In this document: positions 14,119-39,822 of the stretch, piece after piece
Numbering within the stretch: the first letter of the stretch is position 1
Layout: each line of letters begins with the position of its first letter
Assembly: GCA_044223505.1 (NCBI GenBank)
Contig: JBGALX010000012.1
Span: 154,174-218,173 of the forward strand
Source: Myxococcaceae bacterium
GTDB lineage: Bacteria; Myxococcota; Myxococcia; Myxococcales; Myxococcaceae
Direction: 5' to 3'
DNA: 64,000 nucleotides
Program-made: the position numbers and the translations under genes
The notes under the pieces: generated by a model
The model's input: only the letters and a program-made list of their open reading frames with translations
What the model was told of the DNA's origin: nothing
The model's database searches: none

Positions 14119-16055
14119 GTGAGAAGCCGAGCTCCCTCTCCCCTCGTAGGGAGGAGGGCCGGGGTGAGGGGCGGCTGCTCAAGCCTCTCTTGCTCGTGCT
14201 CACCCTCAGCCGCTGCTCGTGCGAGCTCTCGGCCGAGCTCGACGCGGGCGTCTTCGGCTGCAGCACGAACGACGACTGCATCCACGGCTTTCGCTGCATC
14301 GCGCAGCGCTGTCTGCCCGAGGGCACGCCGCCGCCCGACTCGGGCAGCGCGGGAGGCTCGAACCCGTTTCACGCGGCGCTGCGCTTCACGACGCCCGCGC
14401 AGGCGGTGCCGGCGGGCGCCTGCTCGAGCGAGGTGGGCTTCGGCTTCTTCGACGACGCGGGCCAGCCGACCGTCGCCGAAGCCGACGTCGAGGTGACGGC
14501 GACGTCGCTCGACCTCTCGCTCTTCTCCGACTCGGCGTGCCAGGCGGGGCAGGGCGCGTTCCCCATCCGCAGCTCGGGTGTCCTCTACTTCCGCGGCGCT
14601 CGCGCGGGCATGTTCGACCTCTCGCTCAGCGGCGCGAGGCTCACGCCGGCGACGCAGACCGAGACCGTCACGGCGCAGCCGTCGTCGCAGCGGCTCGCGT
14701 TCGTCAGCGCGCCGCCTTTGCCCTCGCTCGCGGGCTCGTGCGTGCAGGGCCTCACGGTCGAGCTGCGCGATGGCACCGGCGCGCCGCTGCAGGCTCCGCC
14801 GGGCGGCCTCACGCTCGAGCTCCAGTCGCAGCCCGCCGGCCTGCGCTTCTCGACCGACCCCGGCTGCGCGCCGTCGGGTCCGGTCACCCTTCCCGCCGGA
14901 GCGACCCGCACCACCTTCGCCGCCACCTCGGTCAGCGGTCGCGAGTACGTGGTGACGGCCTCGGCGGCCGACGCGGGCTCCGACACGCTCGCGGTGTCGC
15001 TGCGGCCGCTCGTGCGCTTGGGCACGTGCAACCTGGGCGACGACGAGCACGTGAAGGCGTGCGCCGTGGTGCCTCCGCTGCTGGACGCGACGCGCAGCTT
15101 CCTCGTCTACCAATCGACGCCTGACGACCACGACCCGTCGCGGGCGACGGTGGCGTGCGTGCTCGGCGACGCAGGCTCGGTCACCTGCCAGCGCGTGCTC
15201 GACGGCGGCACCGCGCGCATCACGTGGTACGCCGCCGAGCTGAAGGACTCGCGCGTCGACCGCTACGAGGTGCGGTGCCCCACCGACGGCGGCCGCGCGG
15301 TGACGGTGCCGCTGAACGCTGCGGTGCCACCGCAGCGCCAGTTCGTGCTCGCGGCGATGAGCTCGCAGGGCGTCGAGCTCACGGGCAACGACTTCTTCAC
15401 GGTCACGCCGTCGGCGGATCAGCTCGACGTGCAGTGGGGCGCAGACGGCTGCGGCGCGCGGCGCGTGCAGCTGCAGGTGGTGCAGGTGCCGGGCTTCACG
15501 ACGTCGCGCGCGACGGGCTCGCTGGTGAACGTGGCGACCGACGACGGCACCGGCCTGCCGGCTCCCGACGGAGGCACGCTGGCGCTGGCGACGTGGCGGG
15601 CGGCGACTCCGGGTGGCGGCGAGAACCGGGTGTGCGACCGCATGGTGCGGGCGTTCAACACGGGCGGCACGTCGGTGCGGGTGTCGCGGGCGGCGGGCAA
15701 CACGGCTCCGCAGTGCAGCGAGTTCGACGTCGAAGGGTGGGGCGTCGAGCGCGTCGACGTGGGGCAGCGCGGTGCCGTGCAGGCGATGACCGTCTCGCTC
15801 GGCGCCGGCATGGCGACGGCGACGCGCACCATCTCGGCGGTCGACCCCACGCGTACGCTGCTGCTCGCCTCGGGTCAGAGCGGCGGCGGCGGGCAGGCGG
15901 CGGGCGAGGGCGCCTTCGCGGTCGACGGCGGGGGCTTCCTCGGCGAGGCGACCGTGACGCTGAAGCTGAACAGCGCGACCGAGGTGCAGCTCGAGCGCGC
16001 GGGCACGCGGGCGGCGGCGACCTTTACCGTCTACGTGCTGCAGCTCGAGCCGTGA
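14115..16055 (+). CDS. Lipoprotein, paralogue 3. Its 5' region is interrupted by REP-like element copy a.
   Basis: GTG start overlaps the paralogue-2 stop (GTGA). Knot FGCSTNDDCIHGFRCIAQRCLPEG. Blocks LVRLGTCNLG, ITWYAAEL, TRTLLLASGQ. C-terminus TFTVYVLQLEP. The N-terminal segment SSLSPRREEGRGEGR is encoded by the REP element. Confidence 0.65.
   Translation: MSEKPSSLSPRREEGRGEGRLLKPLLLVLTLSRCSCELSAELDAGVFGCSTNDDCIHGFRCIAQRCLPEGTPPPDSGSAGGSNPFHAALRFTTPAQAVPAGACSSEVGFGFFDDAGQPTVAEADVEVTATSLDLSLFSDSACQAGQGAFPIRSSGVLYFRGARAGMFDLSLSGARLTPATQTETVTAQPSSQRLAFVSAPPLPSLAGSCVQGLTVELRDGTGAPLQAPPGGLTLELQSQPAGLRFSTDPGCAPSGPVTLPAGATRTTFAATSVSGREYVVTASAADAGSDTLAVSLRPLVRLGTCNLGDDEHVKACAVVPPLLDATRSFLVYQSTPDDHDPSRATVACVLGDAGSVTCQRVLDGGTARITWYAAELKDSRVDRYEVRCPTDGGRAVTVPLNAAVPPQRQFVLAAMSSQGVELTGNDFFTVTPSADQLDVQWGADGCGARRVQLQVVQVPGFTTSRATGSLVNVATDDGTGLPAPDGGTLALATWRAATPGGGENRVCDRMVRAFNTGGTSVRVSRAAGNTAPQCSEFDVEGWGVERVDVGQRGAVQAMTVSLGAGMATATRTISAVDPTRTLLLASGQSGGGGQAAGEGAFAVDGGGFLGEATVTLKLNSATEVQLERAGTRAAATFTVYVLQLEP
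14134..14171 (+). repeat. REP-like palindromic element, copy a.
   Basis: Sequence ccctctcccctcgtagggaggagggccggggtgagggg. The same unit occurs at 22526, 39630 and, inverted, at 39785. Confidence 0.8.
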
Positions 16056-16077
16056 TGACGGTAGCCTCCGGAGCTCC

Positions 16078-16566
16078 ATGAGCCGTGAACGACAGTTCCA
16101 GTGGGCCGACCCGCAGACGCAGCTGCGAGGCATCGAAGGCAAGACGGGCCTCGCCTTTCTCGCGGCCATCCTCAAGGGCGAGGTGCCCGCGGCGCCCATC
16201 TGCGGGGCGCTGAACTTCAAGCTGGTGCACGCGGAAGAGGGGCTCGTGCGCTTCGAGGGGTGGCCCGACGAGTCGGTCTACAACCCGATGGGCTCGGTGC
16301 ACGGCGGCTGGGTCGCGACGCTGCTCGACTCGGCGATGGGCAGCGCGGTGATGAGCACGCTCGACGCCGCGAGCGCGTACACCACGATGGACTTCACGGT
16401 TCACCTCGTGCGTGGCCTCACGAAAGACACGGGCGCCGTCGTCGCCGAGGGCAAGATCGTGCACCGCGGCAATCGCGCCGCCACCGCCGAGGGCCGCCTC
16501 GCCGGGCCCGACGGCAAGCTCTACGCGCACGCGTCGACGACGTGTCTCATCATGCCGCGGAAGTGA
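16078..16566 (+). CDS. PaaI-family (hotdog-fold) thioesterase.
   Basis: Motifs NPMGSVHGGWVATLLDSAMG...VAEGKIVHRGNRAATAEGRL. RBS GGAG upstream of the ATG. Confidence 0.8.
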   Translation: MSRERQFQWADPQTQLRGIEGKTGLAFLAAILKGEVPAAPICGALNFKLVHAEEGLVRFEGWPDESVYNPMGSVHGGWVATLLDSAMGSAVMSTLDAASAYTTMDFTVHLVRGLTKDTGAVVAEGKIVHRGNRAATAEGRLAGPDGKLYAHASTTCLIMPRK

Positions 16567-16570
16567 GTCA

Positions 16571-16656
16571 GAAAAAGGGGACAGGCTACTTTTCCAGTCG
16601 CAGACTGAGACGCGCGTTGCCGCAGGCCTTCGGAAAAGTAGCCTGTCCCCTTTTTC
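16571..16656. repeat. Perfect 25-bp inverted repeat (GAAAAAGGGGACAGGCTACTTTTCC / GGAAAAGTAGCCTGTCCCCTTTTTC) with a 36-bp spacer. Candidate bidirectional terminator or a miniature palindromic element.
   Basis: Exact reverse-complement arms. The arms are relatively AT-rich in a 70 % GC context. T-tract after the right arm, A-tract before the left arm. Confidence 0.85.
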
Positions 16657-38688: not shown

Positions 38689-39153
38689 CTACGGCTTCAT
38701 CTGCTCGGGCGTGAAGAGCTGCTGGATGCGGGCTCCGAGCGACTCCCAGGTCTTCCTCTTCGGCGGCGCCGCGAACGCGAGCTCGAGGGAGCCCATGTCG
38801 GGGAAGGCGATGGGGAAGTCGATGCGGCACGGGCCCTTCGCGCTCTCGAGGTCGTACTCGGTGACGAGCGGCAGCGCCGCGTCGTAGGCGGCGAGCTTGA
38901 ACTCGCGGCGCAGCGTCGCGACGTTGCGCTCGATGTTCTTGCGGTGCGTCGTCAGCTTCTCTTCGAGCTCGACCCGCGCGTGCTTGTGGAACTCCTGCTC
39001 GTCGGCGGGGTCCTGGAAGGTGATGCTCGGCGTCGTGAGCACGATGAGGTGGTGAGGGCCGGTCTGATGTGCTCGGGTGGCTCCGCTCGTAGCGCCTCCT
39101 CTCGGGAGCAGCAGCACGGCGGCGGCCGCGCACAGCGTGAGCGTGGTTCTCAC
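38689..39153 (-). CDS. Secreted hypothetical protein.
   Basis: Signal peptide MRTTLTLCAAAAVLLL. High GC3. Confidence 0.5.
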   Translation of the reverse strand: MRTTLTLCAAAAVLLLPRGGATSGATRAHQTGPHHLIVLTTPSITFQDPADEQEFHKHARVELEEKLTTHRKNIERNVATLRREFKLAAYDAALPLVTEYDLESAKGPCRIDFPIAFPDMGSLELAFAAPPKRKTWESLGARIQQLFTPEQMKP

Positions 39154-39188
39154 GGCGCCGCATCATGGCGGGCTAGGCTCGCCACGTC

Positions 39189-39644
39189 ATGCTTCGCCGC
39201 CAACTGCTGCTGTTCGGCGCGCTGCTCGCGCTGCTGCCCGGCGAAGCGCTCGCGCACGGCTACCGCCGGCGCCGCAGGCGAAGGCAGCGCCGCCGCCGCT
39301 ACCGCCGCGTTCGCCGCCGCATTCGACGGCGCGTGCGCTGGCGCGCGGTCGGAAAGCGGCGCGTGGTGGTGGCGCCGAAGGCGCCGCGGGTCGGCTGGGA
39401 GCTCGCCGTCTCGGGCGAGGGCCCCGCCGACGAGGTGGTGGTCGTGAAAGAGGTGAAGCCCGACGTGCTCGTGGTGGCCGGGCCCGACGGCAAGTCGCGC
39501 GAGGTCGAGTACGTGCAGGAAGACAACGACGAGAACGGCCGCGACCTCGAGGGCAGCGTGCTGCCCGACGGCGTGATGGACGGCCCGTACATGGAGAGCG
39601 ACATCAGCGAGTGGGAGCCGTACGAAGAACCCTCTCCCCCGTAG
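39189..39644 (+). CDS. Secreted protein made of a ~40-residue poly-arginine tract followed by an acidic C-terminal tail.
   Basis: Signal peptide MLRRQLLLFGALLALLPGEALA. Mature N-terminus HGYRRRRRRRQRRRRYRRVRRRIRRRVRWR. Acidic tail EDNDENGRDLEG...ESDISEWEPYEE. GC3 is near 95 % throughout the ORF. The TAG stop is supplied by REP element copy c. Confidence 0.5.
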   Translation: MLRRQLLLFGALLALLPGEALAHGYRRRRRRRQRRRRYRRVRRRIRRRVRWRAVGKRRVVVAPKAPRVGWELAVSGEGPADEVVVVKEVKPDVLVVAGPDGKSREVEYVQEDNDENGRDLEGSVLPDGVMDGPYMESDISEWEPYEEPSPP

Positions 39645-39822
39645 GGAGAGGGCAGGGTGAGGGGCGCCGCACGAGGCACGGCGGCGCAAGAGAGACAGAG
39701 TTGTTCGGGCCGTCGAAGAAACCGGAGGGCGCTCGGCGTCTCTGCTCGCGTCGATTCGACTCTTCTTCTTCCTTCGTCTACTGCCCCCTCACCCTTTCCC
39801 TCTCCCCTACGGGGGAGAGGGG
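39630..39822. mobile_element. MITE-like unit. REP-like copies c (39630..39664) and d (39785..39822, inverted) act as terminal inverted repeats around a ~120-bp core of lower GC.
   Basis: Copy c is ccctctcccccgtagggagagggcagggtgagggg. Copy d is the reverse complement of cccctctcccccgtaggggagagggaaagggtgagggg. The unit lies between convergent genes. Confidence 0.4.

Follow-up and report, generated by a model that had tools for sequence, protein, structure and literature searches.

The window analysed here, a stretch of 64 kb from a Myxococcaceae contig, carries four short palindromic units with a TAG in the loop, and raises the question of which family they belong to, how they came to lie at the edges of genes, and whether they are of any use to those genes. 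All four (Table 1) were recovered where the preliminary description had placed them, at 14134(+), 22526(+), 39630(+) and 39785(-), and in the gene contexts that it had given, namely an operon junction, a gap between co-directional genes and a gap between convergent genes. They share the layout CCCTCTCCC-loop-GGGAGAGGG-N2-3-GGGTGAGGG, of which chance predicts no occurrence in the window. Indeed, the pattern CCCTCTCCCC-N2-8-GGGAGAGGG matched at 39630(+) and 39798(+/-) with 0 matches expected (100 shuffles), GGGAGAGGGNNNGGGTGAGGGG with up to 3 mismatches matched at 14150, 22544 and 39785(-) with 0.04 expected by chance, and a relaxed hairpin pattern matched at 14135, 22529 and 39631 with 0.09 expected by chance.

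Table 1. Repeat units and associated features, in coordinates of the window.
Feature	Coordinates	Strand	Remarks
BoxC/TM-type unit 1	14123..14171	+	core three-block motif 14134-14171; lineage-specific 5' extension GAAGCCGAGCT 14123-14133
Paralogue 3, lipoprotein-like, 646 aa	14115..16055	+	GTG start overlaps TGA of paralogue 2 (GTGA)
4.3-kb segment	18281..22602		minus-strand genes 18292-20286 and 20324-22522; from BLAST synteny blocks against L123 and junction sequences
BoxC/TM-type unit 2	22526..22565	+	hairpin CCCTCTCTCC/GGAGAGAGGG perfect, third block degenerate
BoxC/TM-type unit 3	39630..39665	+	covers last five codons of ORF 39189-39644 (four sense and stop)
Spacer between inverted units	39666..39784		119 nt, 63% GC, single-copy, own small CGCCG/CGGCG hairpin
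BoxC/TM-type unit 4	39785..39822	-	inverted relative to unit 3, tail-to-tail: third blocks face spacer
Tail-to-tail pair	39630..39822		between convergent genes; RNA fold -122 kcal/mol, z = -6.0

The unit of the family is G/C-rich and 36-50 nt long, and in it a hairpin of 9-11 bp (CCCTCTCCC / GGGAGAGGG) precedes a third, purine block (GGGTGAGGG). Copy 3 reads CCCTCTCCC CCGTA GGGAGAGGG CA GGGTGAGGGG, and copy 4, on the minus strand, CCCCTCTCCCC CGTA GGGGAGAGGG AAA GGGTGAGGGG. Copy 1 (CCCTCTCCCC TCGTA GGGAGGAGGG CCG GGGTGAGGGG) has a degenerate second block and an unstable hairpin (z = +0.5), and in copy 2 (CCCTCTCTCC TCGTA GGAGAGAGGG ACG GGGTGAGTTG) both arms of a 10-11 bp hairpin have changed yet their pairing has been kept. 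Folding of the hairpins of copies 2-4 gave z = -2 to -3.9.

Judged from their sequence, the units are members of a family known for a long time, the BoxC / PIT / TM-ECO "intrastrand triplex motif" family, which was originally reported from E. coli (Bachellier et al. 1990s; Hoyne & Maher 2000; Holder et al. 2015, PMC4666352). They agree with Table 1 of the latter study and with its pattern, CCCTCNCCC-N3-6-GGGNGAGGG-N3-GGGNGAGGG, and align column by column with the TM-ECO copies of E. coli, blocks 2 and 3 being invariant; unit 4 matches the pattern strictly (loop 1 of 6 nt, loop 2 AAA), with full triplex compatibility of its blocks 2 and 3. The units had initially been taken for a REP family from no described set; they represent a known family, which is thus rediscovered here, and no new REP family. 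Intergenic sites of 4053 of 5426 E. coli genomes share 85% identity over 39 nt with the stretch 39626-39668 of the window, and in E. coli K-12 the hrpB-mrcB pair shows a tail-to-tail architecture like that of the window pair. The motif was found at at least 116 loci in more than 15 phyla, with the full three-block form in 96 of the 119 sequences compared, and exact hairpins with a GTAG loop likewise span more than 15 phyla.

Besides their three blocks of nearly the same sequence (CCCTCTCCC, loop, GGGAGAGGG, 2-3 nt, GGGTGAGGG(G)), the window units share with this family their position at gene ends or in intergenic regions, the occurrence of solo units together with tail-to-tail pairs of non-identical variants, copy sets that vary among close relatives, and the lack of an associated transposase. 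In E. coli, tail-to-tail pairs of two non-identical units (A+B) have been described, and motif-bearing loci are more variable between strains (PMC4666352). In contrast, the host is here a 71%-GC myxobacterium, whereas the cited papers give Proteobacteria and Cyanobacteria as hosts; (C)GTAG is present in every loop 1; loop 2 reads CA, AAA, CCG or ACG instead of the TTA/CCG types of E. coli; the pair spacer measures 119 nt instead of ~17-50 nt; at least some copies bear the 5' extension GAAGCCGAGCT; and two copies overlap coding sequence, while those of E. coli K-12 were all reported as intergenic. The repeats CCCTCTCCCXX(X)GGGAGAGGG of Enterobacter sp. 638 (PMC2869309) have the same hairpin and lie at gene 3' ends, often in twos or threes, but were reported as a palindrome only, with TGT/ACA loops, ~100 copies and a presumed terminator role, the third block going unmentioned.

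The window copies are young, with fast turnover. Contig Ga0268299_1000060 of a relative is syntenic across the window at 80-85% identity, with alignment blocks breaking at 39625/39838, and every window copy is absent from the orthologous position of a relative at this identity. Empty sites are seen in L119, L123 and L124; the orthologous proteins lack the unit-encoded extensions. Two relatives carry the 49-nt unit with its GAAGCCGAGCT 5' extension too, at loci not orthologous to those of the window: unit 1 is 92% identical over 49 nt to locus L172 in the closest relative, where the loop TAG ends an ORF too; another copy is present in GCA_016793725.1, and the extension is also seen in L103. Empty orthologous sites and similar copies at non-orthologous loci sustain the earlier claim of dispersed palindromic repeats at gene edges, and the former argue against the option, raised as a possible refutation, that protein-coding conservation accounts for the similarity. 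The orthologous loci share no more than 80-85% identity, at which gain here is not formally separable from loss in the relative; set against three separate losses together with different copies at other places, gain or turnover is the simpler reading of the sequences. Neither a clean target-site duplication nor a consistent target was seen for the window units.

Unit 1 sits within the sole workable reading frame of paralogue 3 (start GTG 14115), and an identical public protein (P0024) is annotated at 646 aa with the unit included, so that its translation in frame as part of the N-terminus, proposed from the outset, is borne out. The orthologues P0025 and P0026, of 625 and 627 aa, start at the same GTGA overlap, and the N-terminal alignment leaves paralogue 3 with 16-19 extra codons before the signal peptide, most of which (residues ~3-20) are unit 1. 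In L123 and L124 the orthologous junction lacks the unit. At the window site GTGA is repeated at both junctions of the unit, whose boundary is therefore ambiguous.

Two minus-strand genes are separated by an intergenic gap of 76 nt, and unit 2 lies in this gap, 3 nt upstream of the start codon ATG 22522, which is also the start in the public annotation (P0032, 732 aa). Nothing on the mRNA resembles a Shine-Dalgarno sequence except the G-rich arm of the unit; the DNA hairpin has z = -3.4 / -3.9, and in the RNA fold the hairpin stands 5 nt ahead of the AUG. The unit lies 34-37 nt inside the right edge of the 4.3-kb segment, which is absent from the syntenic contig Ga0268299_1000060; the GCA_016793725.1 orthologue of the beta-helix gene is found in a different context, with no unit upstream.

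As first noted, the loop TAG of unit 3 (39642-39644) serves as stop codon to the poly-Arg gene (151-aa ORF 39189-39644), whose product ends in ...SEWEPYE-EPSPP* in the window and in ...SEWEDPYD* in the L119 orthologue. The unit 3 stem holds the only SNP relative to an independent assembly over 3.9 kb (39635 T/G). Unit 4 follows the stop of a minus-strand hydrolase gene (39838-42513) at a distance of 15 nt. Two further details of the preliminary description stand: copies 3 and 4 are inverted relative to each other, a stem of ~35 bp being possible on folding 39630..39822, and the core between them is lower in GC than the window (63% vs 71%) and inside the 60-80% spanned by other intergenic stretches here.

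Such positions, with one unit 15 nt past a stop, one over a stop, a pair between convergent genes and unit 2 over a Shine-Dalgarno region 3-5 nt before an AUG, might indicate that the units are regulatory elements (terminators or attenuators, stabilisers of mRNA 3' ends, or translational occluders) selected and kept for function instead of being selfish. The stability of the hairpins, the terminator role suggested for the same palindrome in Enterobacter sp. 638 (PMC2869309) and the G-quadruplex / hairpin / duplex switch proposed by Kaplan et al. point the same way. We nevertheless consider this explanation unlikely. The units are not conserved at the orthologous loci of close relatives, whose genes therefore do without them, and one copy lies inside a coding region; a U tract follows none of the hairpins, and a terminator scan returned no intrinsic terminator. 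Moreover, PIT elements showed neither promoter nor terminator activity in E. coli (earlier work cited in PMC4666352), where the neighbouring genes have no functional bias (PMC4666352).

A somewhat smaller chance is given to the MITE-like structure originally proposed for the inverted pair, in which the two units would be terminal inverted repeats, the 119-nt core part of the mobile unit, and the solo units its remnants. Inverted end units do flank a lower-GC core (63%), nothing at the orthologous site corresponds to the 193-nt stretch, the 48 nt there being unrelated sequence with no unit, and the pair forms a long hairpin (z = -6). Like MITEs such as Correia/NEMIS or ERIC, the pair is small, non-coding, flanked by inverted repeats and located in or near gene ends, sometimes providing start or stop signals. 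Unlike them, it has neither a target-site duplication (its flanks are GAAGAA and ACGCGT) nor a repeated core, and its end units also stand alone. For the spacer, neither the rest of the window nor the relatives' loci nor ~240 other loci gave a match, except for L117, a contig of the same organism; its absence from the relative says little, since the ancestral spacer would be unalignable anyway at 80-85% identity. The supposed terminal repeats are non-identical (loop 2 CA vs AAA), as in the A+B pairs already described in E. coli, whose two units lie only ~17 nt apart.

Least probable of all is a REP/REPIN family moved by a REP-associated tyrosine (Y1/HUH) transposase (RAYT), with GTAG as cleavage tag and the 39630/39785 doublet as a mobile REPIN: GTAG does occur in all four window copies and in L103 and L172, and the inverted doublet folds as a hairpin, but the same family elsewhere has GTAG-less loops (TGT, TTGA, CTTT), GTAG can face either way with respect to the third block, solo units and pairs are equally common, and none of the 46 window ORFs scanned matched Y1_Tnp or any other transposase. 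Typical REPIN spacers are, besides, shorter than the 119 nt observed here. REPs resemble the window units as short G/C-rich palindromes with GTAG and hairpin-forming inverted doublets, located mostly downstream of genes and subject to turnover with strain-variable copy sets (PMC3733652, PMC3116915). The palindrome of REPs, however, has GTAG at one of its ends (PMC3733652), whereas in the window units it lies in the hairpin loop; because the two G-rich blocks that follow cannot pair, no Watson-Crick palindrome is possible after it. The window units further differ in their integral third, non-pairing purine block and in loop sequences that are not conserved across lineages, and no association with mobile elements was found in E. 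coli (Holder et al., PMC4666352).

We therefore favour, as the likely explanation, that the units are BoxC / PIT / TM-ECO copies forming a young, lineage-specific subfamily that behaves as a set of non-autonomous, essentially selfish repeats. By analogy with the E. coli sequence, for which triplex formation was shown in vitro (PMC4666352), the third block would fold back on the hairpin in single-stranded DNA as a purine-motif intrastrand triplex; the same authors saw no stable triplex either in vivo or on double-stranded DNA, so that any role of the triplex is hypothetical. Copying could proceed through a structure-specific enzyme acting in trans, or through template switching during replication or repair at the non-B structure, and copies would persist only at the very ends of genes, where the harm they cause is small.

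Their local effects would then be by-products of this placement. Unit 3 would have overwritten a stop codon, its loop TAG serving as the new one and adding five residues (EPSPP); unit 1 would have become part of the reading frame of a lipoprotein precursor, lengthening its N-terminus by 16-19 residues; and unit 2 puts a stable hairpin over a ribosome-binding region, next to the junction of a 4.3-kb rearrangement. The long hairpin modelled for the inverted pair is probably a barrier at the 3' transcript ends of the convergent genes, and the pair or the 5'-UTR hairpin may act at the RNA level. What is new at this locus is a lineage-specific subfamily of a known repeat, marked in this genome by a (C)GTAG loop in all copies and an 11-nt 5' extension in at least some, whose copies have recently been gained at gene edges in an uncultured Myxococcaceae-like genome.

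Reading of the sequence at all four positions confirmed the claim of a preliminary description that a single type of unit recurs in the window (see the table below). In this unit a C-rich arm (block 1), a short loop with CGTAG and a complementary G-rich arm (block 2) are followed, after 2-3 nt, by a second G-rich block, GGGTGAG(GGG) (block 3). Three pattern searches of the window, which has a GC content of 71%, recovered exactly these sites, with 0.00-0.09 matches expected from shuffled sequences. The four copies per 64 kb are located at gene edges, and include one tail-to-tail pair of non-identical variants. 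The host is an uncultured Myxococcaceae-like bacterium, identical proteins being encoded on the NCBI contig and on Logan contigs from run SRR28480386, and the MAGs nearest to it bear the labels Myxococcaceae and Archangiaceae.

Repeat units of the window and the genes and segments associated with them
Feature	Position	Strand	Description
Copy 1	14134-14171	+	published pattern with one block 2 mismatch and 7-nt loop; 14123-14171 with 5' extension
Copy 2	22526-22565	+	degenerate with respect to published pattern: one mismatch in block 1, two in block 3
Copy 3	39630-39665	+	intact; published pattern matched except for loop 2 of 2 nt
Copy 4	39785-39822	minus	intact; strict match to published BoxC/PIT/TM-ECO pattern
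Pair spacer	39666-39784		119 nt between copies 3 and 4
Paralogue 3	14115-16055		lipoprotein-like gene
Two genes of the 4.3-kb segment	18281-22602	minus	664-aa protein; 732-aa beta-helix/DUF1565 lipoprotein
Poly-Arg protein	39189-39644		ORF ending within copy 3
Hydrolase gene	39838-42513	minus	

The preliminary description had taken these units for an undescribed REP-like family. This was wrong, because the published pattern, the alignment with E. coli copies, the identity to E. coli sequences and the arrangement of a pair in K-12 all match the BoxC/PIT/TM-ECO element, which was found by a full-text search with the sequence blocks (PMC4666352). The published pattern is 5'-CCCTCNCCC N3-6 GGGNGAGGG N3 GGGNGAGGG-3' with one mismatch tolerated (PMC4666352), and 23 copies in E. 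coli K-12, e.g. CCCTCTCCCTGTGGGAGAGGGCCGGGGTGAGGGC, are given in Table 1 of Holder et al. 2015 (PMC4666352). The same element had earlier been named BoxC, and PIT (potential intrastrand triplex) element by Hoyne and Maher, and the same palindrome has also been described for Enterobacter sp. 638 (PMC2869309). The window units could be aligned column for column with published E. coli copies, blocks 2 and 3 being invariant, and window positions 39626-39668 found matches in complete E. coli genomes at 85% identity over 39 of 43 nt, at intergenic chromosomal sites of 4053 of the 5426 genomes. The hrpB-mrcB pair of K-12 is placed tail-to-tail with the third blocks towards the spacer, as in the pair at 39630 and 39785; E. 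coli harbours five tail-to-tail pairs, each composed of two different variants (Holder et al., PMC4666352), and inverted pairing is an already known trait of the family. We therefore assign the units to BoxC/PIT/TM-ECO with high confidence. Compared with the described elements, the local variant in the window stands out by its GTAG loop, by an extension of 11 nt at the 5' end and by the 119 nt that separate the two members of the pair. This lineage-specific variant is new, as are several comparisons of filled and empty sites and two clear examples of coding sequence that has taken in a unit, while the repeat family and its inverted pairs were already known; myxobacteria are unmentioned in the BoxC/PIT/TM-ECO literature examined.

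As a single strand, the E. coli motif folds in vitro into a stable purine-motif triplex, which was not detected in duplex DNA or in vivo; loci bearing the motif are more variable among E. coli strains than control loci (PMC4666352). When positions compatible with purine-motif triads (G.G-C, A.A-T and T.A-T, with block 3 folded back antiparallel) were read off the sequence, copies 3 and 4 would allow 9 of 9 and 10 of 10, respectively, copy 1 would allow 8 of 10, and copy 2 appeared poor. The hairpin of copy 2 is perfect over 10-11 bp (CCCTCTCTCC/GGAGAGAGGG) and differs from the other copies at paired positions in both arms, its third block having decayed. In copy 1 it is the second block that has decayed, and the stability of the hairpin is no better than that of shuffled sequence.

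The inverted pair had also been proposed to be a MITE-like element with a core of lower GC. Folding of 39630-39822 supported the structural part of this proposal, a stem of about 35 bp being predicted as possible (-122 kcal/mol, z = -6). The 119-nt spacer does have a lower GC content than the window as a whole (63%), a value that is nonetheless ordinary for intergenic DNA in the window. No target-site duplication was found, the pair being flanked by ...GAAGAA and ACGCGT..., and no direct repeats are shared by the flanks of the solo units or of two copies from relatives (L103 and L172, described below). BLAST of the window and all loci compared revealed no further copy of the 119-nt core or of the whole 193-nt unit, so that the spacer is single-copy in this set and the MITE reading is unsupported. 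The defining traits of REPs are a palindrome that ends on one side in a GTAG (or CGTC) tag and an associated Y1 transposase (PMC3733652), the cognate RAYT gene typically having the repeats on its flanks. Each of the four window copies instead has GTAG within the loop of its hairpin, with no palindrome after it. A Pfam scan of 46 ORFs in the 64-kb window detected no RAYT, transposase or integrase. The loops of other lineages either differ or carry GTAG reversed relative to the third block. An intrinsic (Rho-independent) terminator is likewise unsupported: a promoter and terminator scan of 39400-40000 on both strands was empty, none of the four units is followed by a T run that would give a U tract, and PIT elements are reported to have shown neither terminator nor promoter activity in E. 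coli (work cited in PMC4666352). Rfam gave no match at the gathering threshold in the whole window, and around the pair only sub-threshold long-hairpin look-alikes at E<=1 (plant miRNA precursors, 31 bits vs a 137-bit threshold; whalefall-1, 15 vs 37).

The history of the units was assessed on a 421-kb JGI contig (Ga0268299_1000060) from a relative, with which almost all of the window shares synteny, the nucleotide identity being 80-85%. At copies 3 and 4 the alignment stops at window position 39625 and restarts at 39838, the 193 nt of the window being matched in the relative by 48 nt of unrelated (GGTGGTT)n-like sequence (locus L119, 12608-12655). Around the hydrolase gene, three 22-kb stretches from relatives (L119-L121), which share synteny with the window in full or in part, held no units. 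Short heptamer tandem repeats occupy the relative's intergenic regions between convergent genes that match repeat-bearing sites of the window, (GGTGGTT)n in L119 and (CTCCCGA)n in L123 (14090-14160). Copies do occur elsewhere in relatives. One locus of the same contig, L172, matches window 14123-14171 over 49 nt at 92% identity, with no other sequence in common; it sits between convergent genes, and the upstream ORF ends at its loop TAG. A second, L103 (GCA_016793725.1), carries the 5' extension GAAGCCGAG-YY, as in unit 1, downstream of a stop codon. When metagenomes were scanned for the 5' extension GAAGCCGAGNNCCCTCTCC, nearly all of the matches listed were chance matches in coding sequence, the one informative copy being L172, from the closest relative.

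Empty orthologous sites, together with copies at non-orthologous loci of relatives (L103 and L172), indicate a dispersed repeat, as first proposed, rather than conservation of protein-coding sequence or a motif confined to four sites. The picture is one of a young repeat family, mobile or unstable, with a local unit of at least 49 nt, and recent gain and turnover appear probable from these comparisons, the orthologous ones being with relatives at only 80-85% identity. The loop was GTAG in all five copies that had not been selected for it (the four of the window and L172), which fits recent common descent of a local subfamily and is also compatible with a functional tag.

Two of the insertions alter genes. 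In both relatives, the third of three lipoprotein paralogues begins at a GTGA start/stop overlap and is 625-627 aa long, while in the window about 48-57 additional nucleotides, unit 1 among them, come after the same GTG (14115) and bring the protein to 646 aa. The start codon being the same and the extra nucleotides in frame, unit 1 is translated in the N-terminus of paralogue 3, as the preliminary description had stated, giving SSLSPRREEGRGEG ahead of the signal peptide; the relatives' orthologues are without the insert. As judged from the alignment, the N-terminal 16-19 residues of this lipoprotein are mostly derived from the inserted repeat, which affects its annotation. GTGA is present at both junctions, but the relatives differ there, and a target-site duplication is not claimed. 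The coding sequence of paralogue 2 ends with one arm of a perfect 10-nt inverted repeat (14103-14112 and 14126-14135, GGAGCTCGGC and GCCGAGCTCC), whose other arm belongs to the 5' extension of unit 1. The predicted hairpin would enclose the stop/start overlap. Chance is the probable explanation, since GAGCTC, a common palindrome, is found in each arm and neither of the two other copies of the extension has such a partner.

The three tandem paralogous lipoprotein-like genes (10378-16055; 511, 727 and 646 aa) share an N-terminal CxxxxDC...C and a C-terminal V(E/Q)L(S/G/E)P*, and have no match in Pfam. The second contains a long Gly/Ala/Thr-rich repeat region, and the array is conserved in both relatives. 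Elsewhere in the window, positions 5278-9738 encode a protein of 1486 aa with many MopE-type Cys-rich CxxCDxxDxxC repeats, in whose gene about 30 units of 18 nt, repeated in tandem almost perfectly (7345-7974), encode (GGSGTA)n and are likely a hotspot of length variation.

At the second gene, the poly-Arg protein ends in ...SEWEPYE-EPSPP* in the window vs ...SEWEDPYD* in the relative's orthologue. The differing C-termini and the break in the alignment indicate that unit 3 overwrote the native stop and that the loop TAG took over, in agreement with the earlier observation that this TAG is the stop codon of the gene. The stop codon of this gene and the four to five residues before it thus derive from a repeat, again affecting annotation. 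In this small, secreted-looking protein, which has no Pfam match, a signal peptide precedes an extreme run of arginines (HGYRRRRRRRQRRRRYRRVRRRIRRRVRWR...), and the C-terminal half is acidic; over the 93 C-terminal residues that can be aligned, identity to the relative is 85%. Over 3939 nt, the window and an independent Logan assembly of the same organism (contig L117, which stops 4 nt beyond unit 4) show a single difference, T/G at 39635 (L117 position 3748) in the stem of unit 3, which turns CCCTCTCCC into CCCTCGCCC, a "mismatch" variant common in E. coli. Local hypermutability, heterogeneity among strains or an assembly that mixed repeat copies could each account for it; as a sign of hypermutability it is anecdotal, a single observation among three SNPs in 14 kb.

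Unit 2 belongs to the two-gene segment, 34-37 nt short of its right edge. The segment is missing from the syntenic relative, where a 72-nt intergenic stretch with (CTCCCGA)n takes its position. In the second relative, the beta-helix gene has a different neighbourhood and the unit was not found upstream. The predicted hairpin of this unit would cover a Shine-Dalgarno-like GGAGAGAGG located 5 nt before AUG 22522, and a hairpin over the ribosome-binding region of the beta-helix lipoprotein gene is accordingly a feature for its annotation. The 664-aa protein gene of the same segment contains 15-nt tandem repeats at 19786-20265.

The wider distribution of the motif was surveyed in one genome per species with a hairpin pattern in which GTAG was fixed in the loop, yielding at least 116 loci; the pattern itself having forced GTAG into the loop, the scan is uninformative on the overall frequency of such loops. 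The matches listed included Alpha-, Beta- and Gammaproteobacteria, Myxococcota, Desulfobacterota, Chloroflexota (many Dehalococcoidia), Cyanobacteria, Planctomycetota, Verrucomicrobiota, Bacteroidota/Ignavibacteria, Armatimonadota, candidate-phyla-radiation bacteria and others, more than 15 phyla in all. The full three-block motif was present in 96 of the 119 sequences examined, beyond chance. Flanks are conserved inside lineages, as in Bosea (L009, L019, L059, L092, L098, L112), Dehalococcoidia (L020, L039, L063, L077, L115) and Nostoc (L038, L086, L113), a common core therefore being embedded in different, longer, lineage-specific repeat units; several loci of Dehalococcoidia have 4-7 copies in 8 kb. 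This suggests that one core module has been reused by many different repeat families. Among mobile replicons, the exact motif was found on 118 plasmids, most of them large non-mobilisable replicons and for the greater part megaplasmids of Azospirillum and Rhizobium, in one of 50,697 isolate phage genomes (Leptolyngbya phage Lsp-JY19, PP438411.1, 35695-35735), and on at least 120 IMG/VR contigs (L246-L365), which are predicted to be viral and may be true phage or prophage and host flanks.

The family to which the units belong, their potential to form hairpins, their position at gene ends, the empty orthologous sites, the near-identical non-orthologous copies and the coding consequences at two genes are shown by the data. 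To explain them, we propose that the units may be non-autonomous repeats, copied by some process and filtered to gene boundaries by selection, and that their effects (a new stop codon, an N-terminal insert, a hairpin before AUG 22522 and a long hairpin between convergent genes) would be side products. Between this passenger interpretation and a selected role we regard the balance as even. The 30-nt three-block core is near-unchanged in more than 15 bacterial phyla, the longer unit differing by lineage (Bosea, Dehalococcoidia, Nostoc and the GAAGCCGAGCT-extended form here). Such a core, the lineage-specific longer units and the gain and loss seen at 80-85% identity would also be compatible with copying of BoxC-type units by an unrecognised, very widespread mechanism, which we consider unlikely; candidate agents would be a host-encoded single-strand structure-specific nuclease, an HUH enzyme or templated repair at a triplex or hairpin. 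If it were true, the clean filled and empty site pairs of myxobacteria would offer a way to define target and junction rules.

For this window the outcome is mostly a correction, the repeat being one to label as BoxC/PIT/TM-type and not as a new REP or MITE family. Together with its syntenic relative, the locus provides several comparisons of filled and empty sites outside Enterobacteria, and a whole-genome version of the same analysis could give the junction rules of the family.
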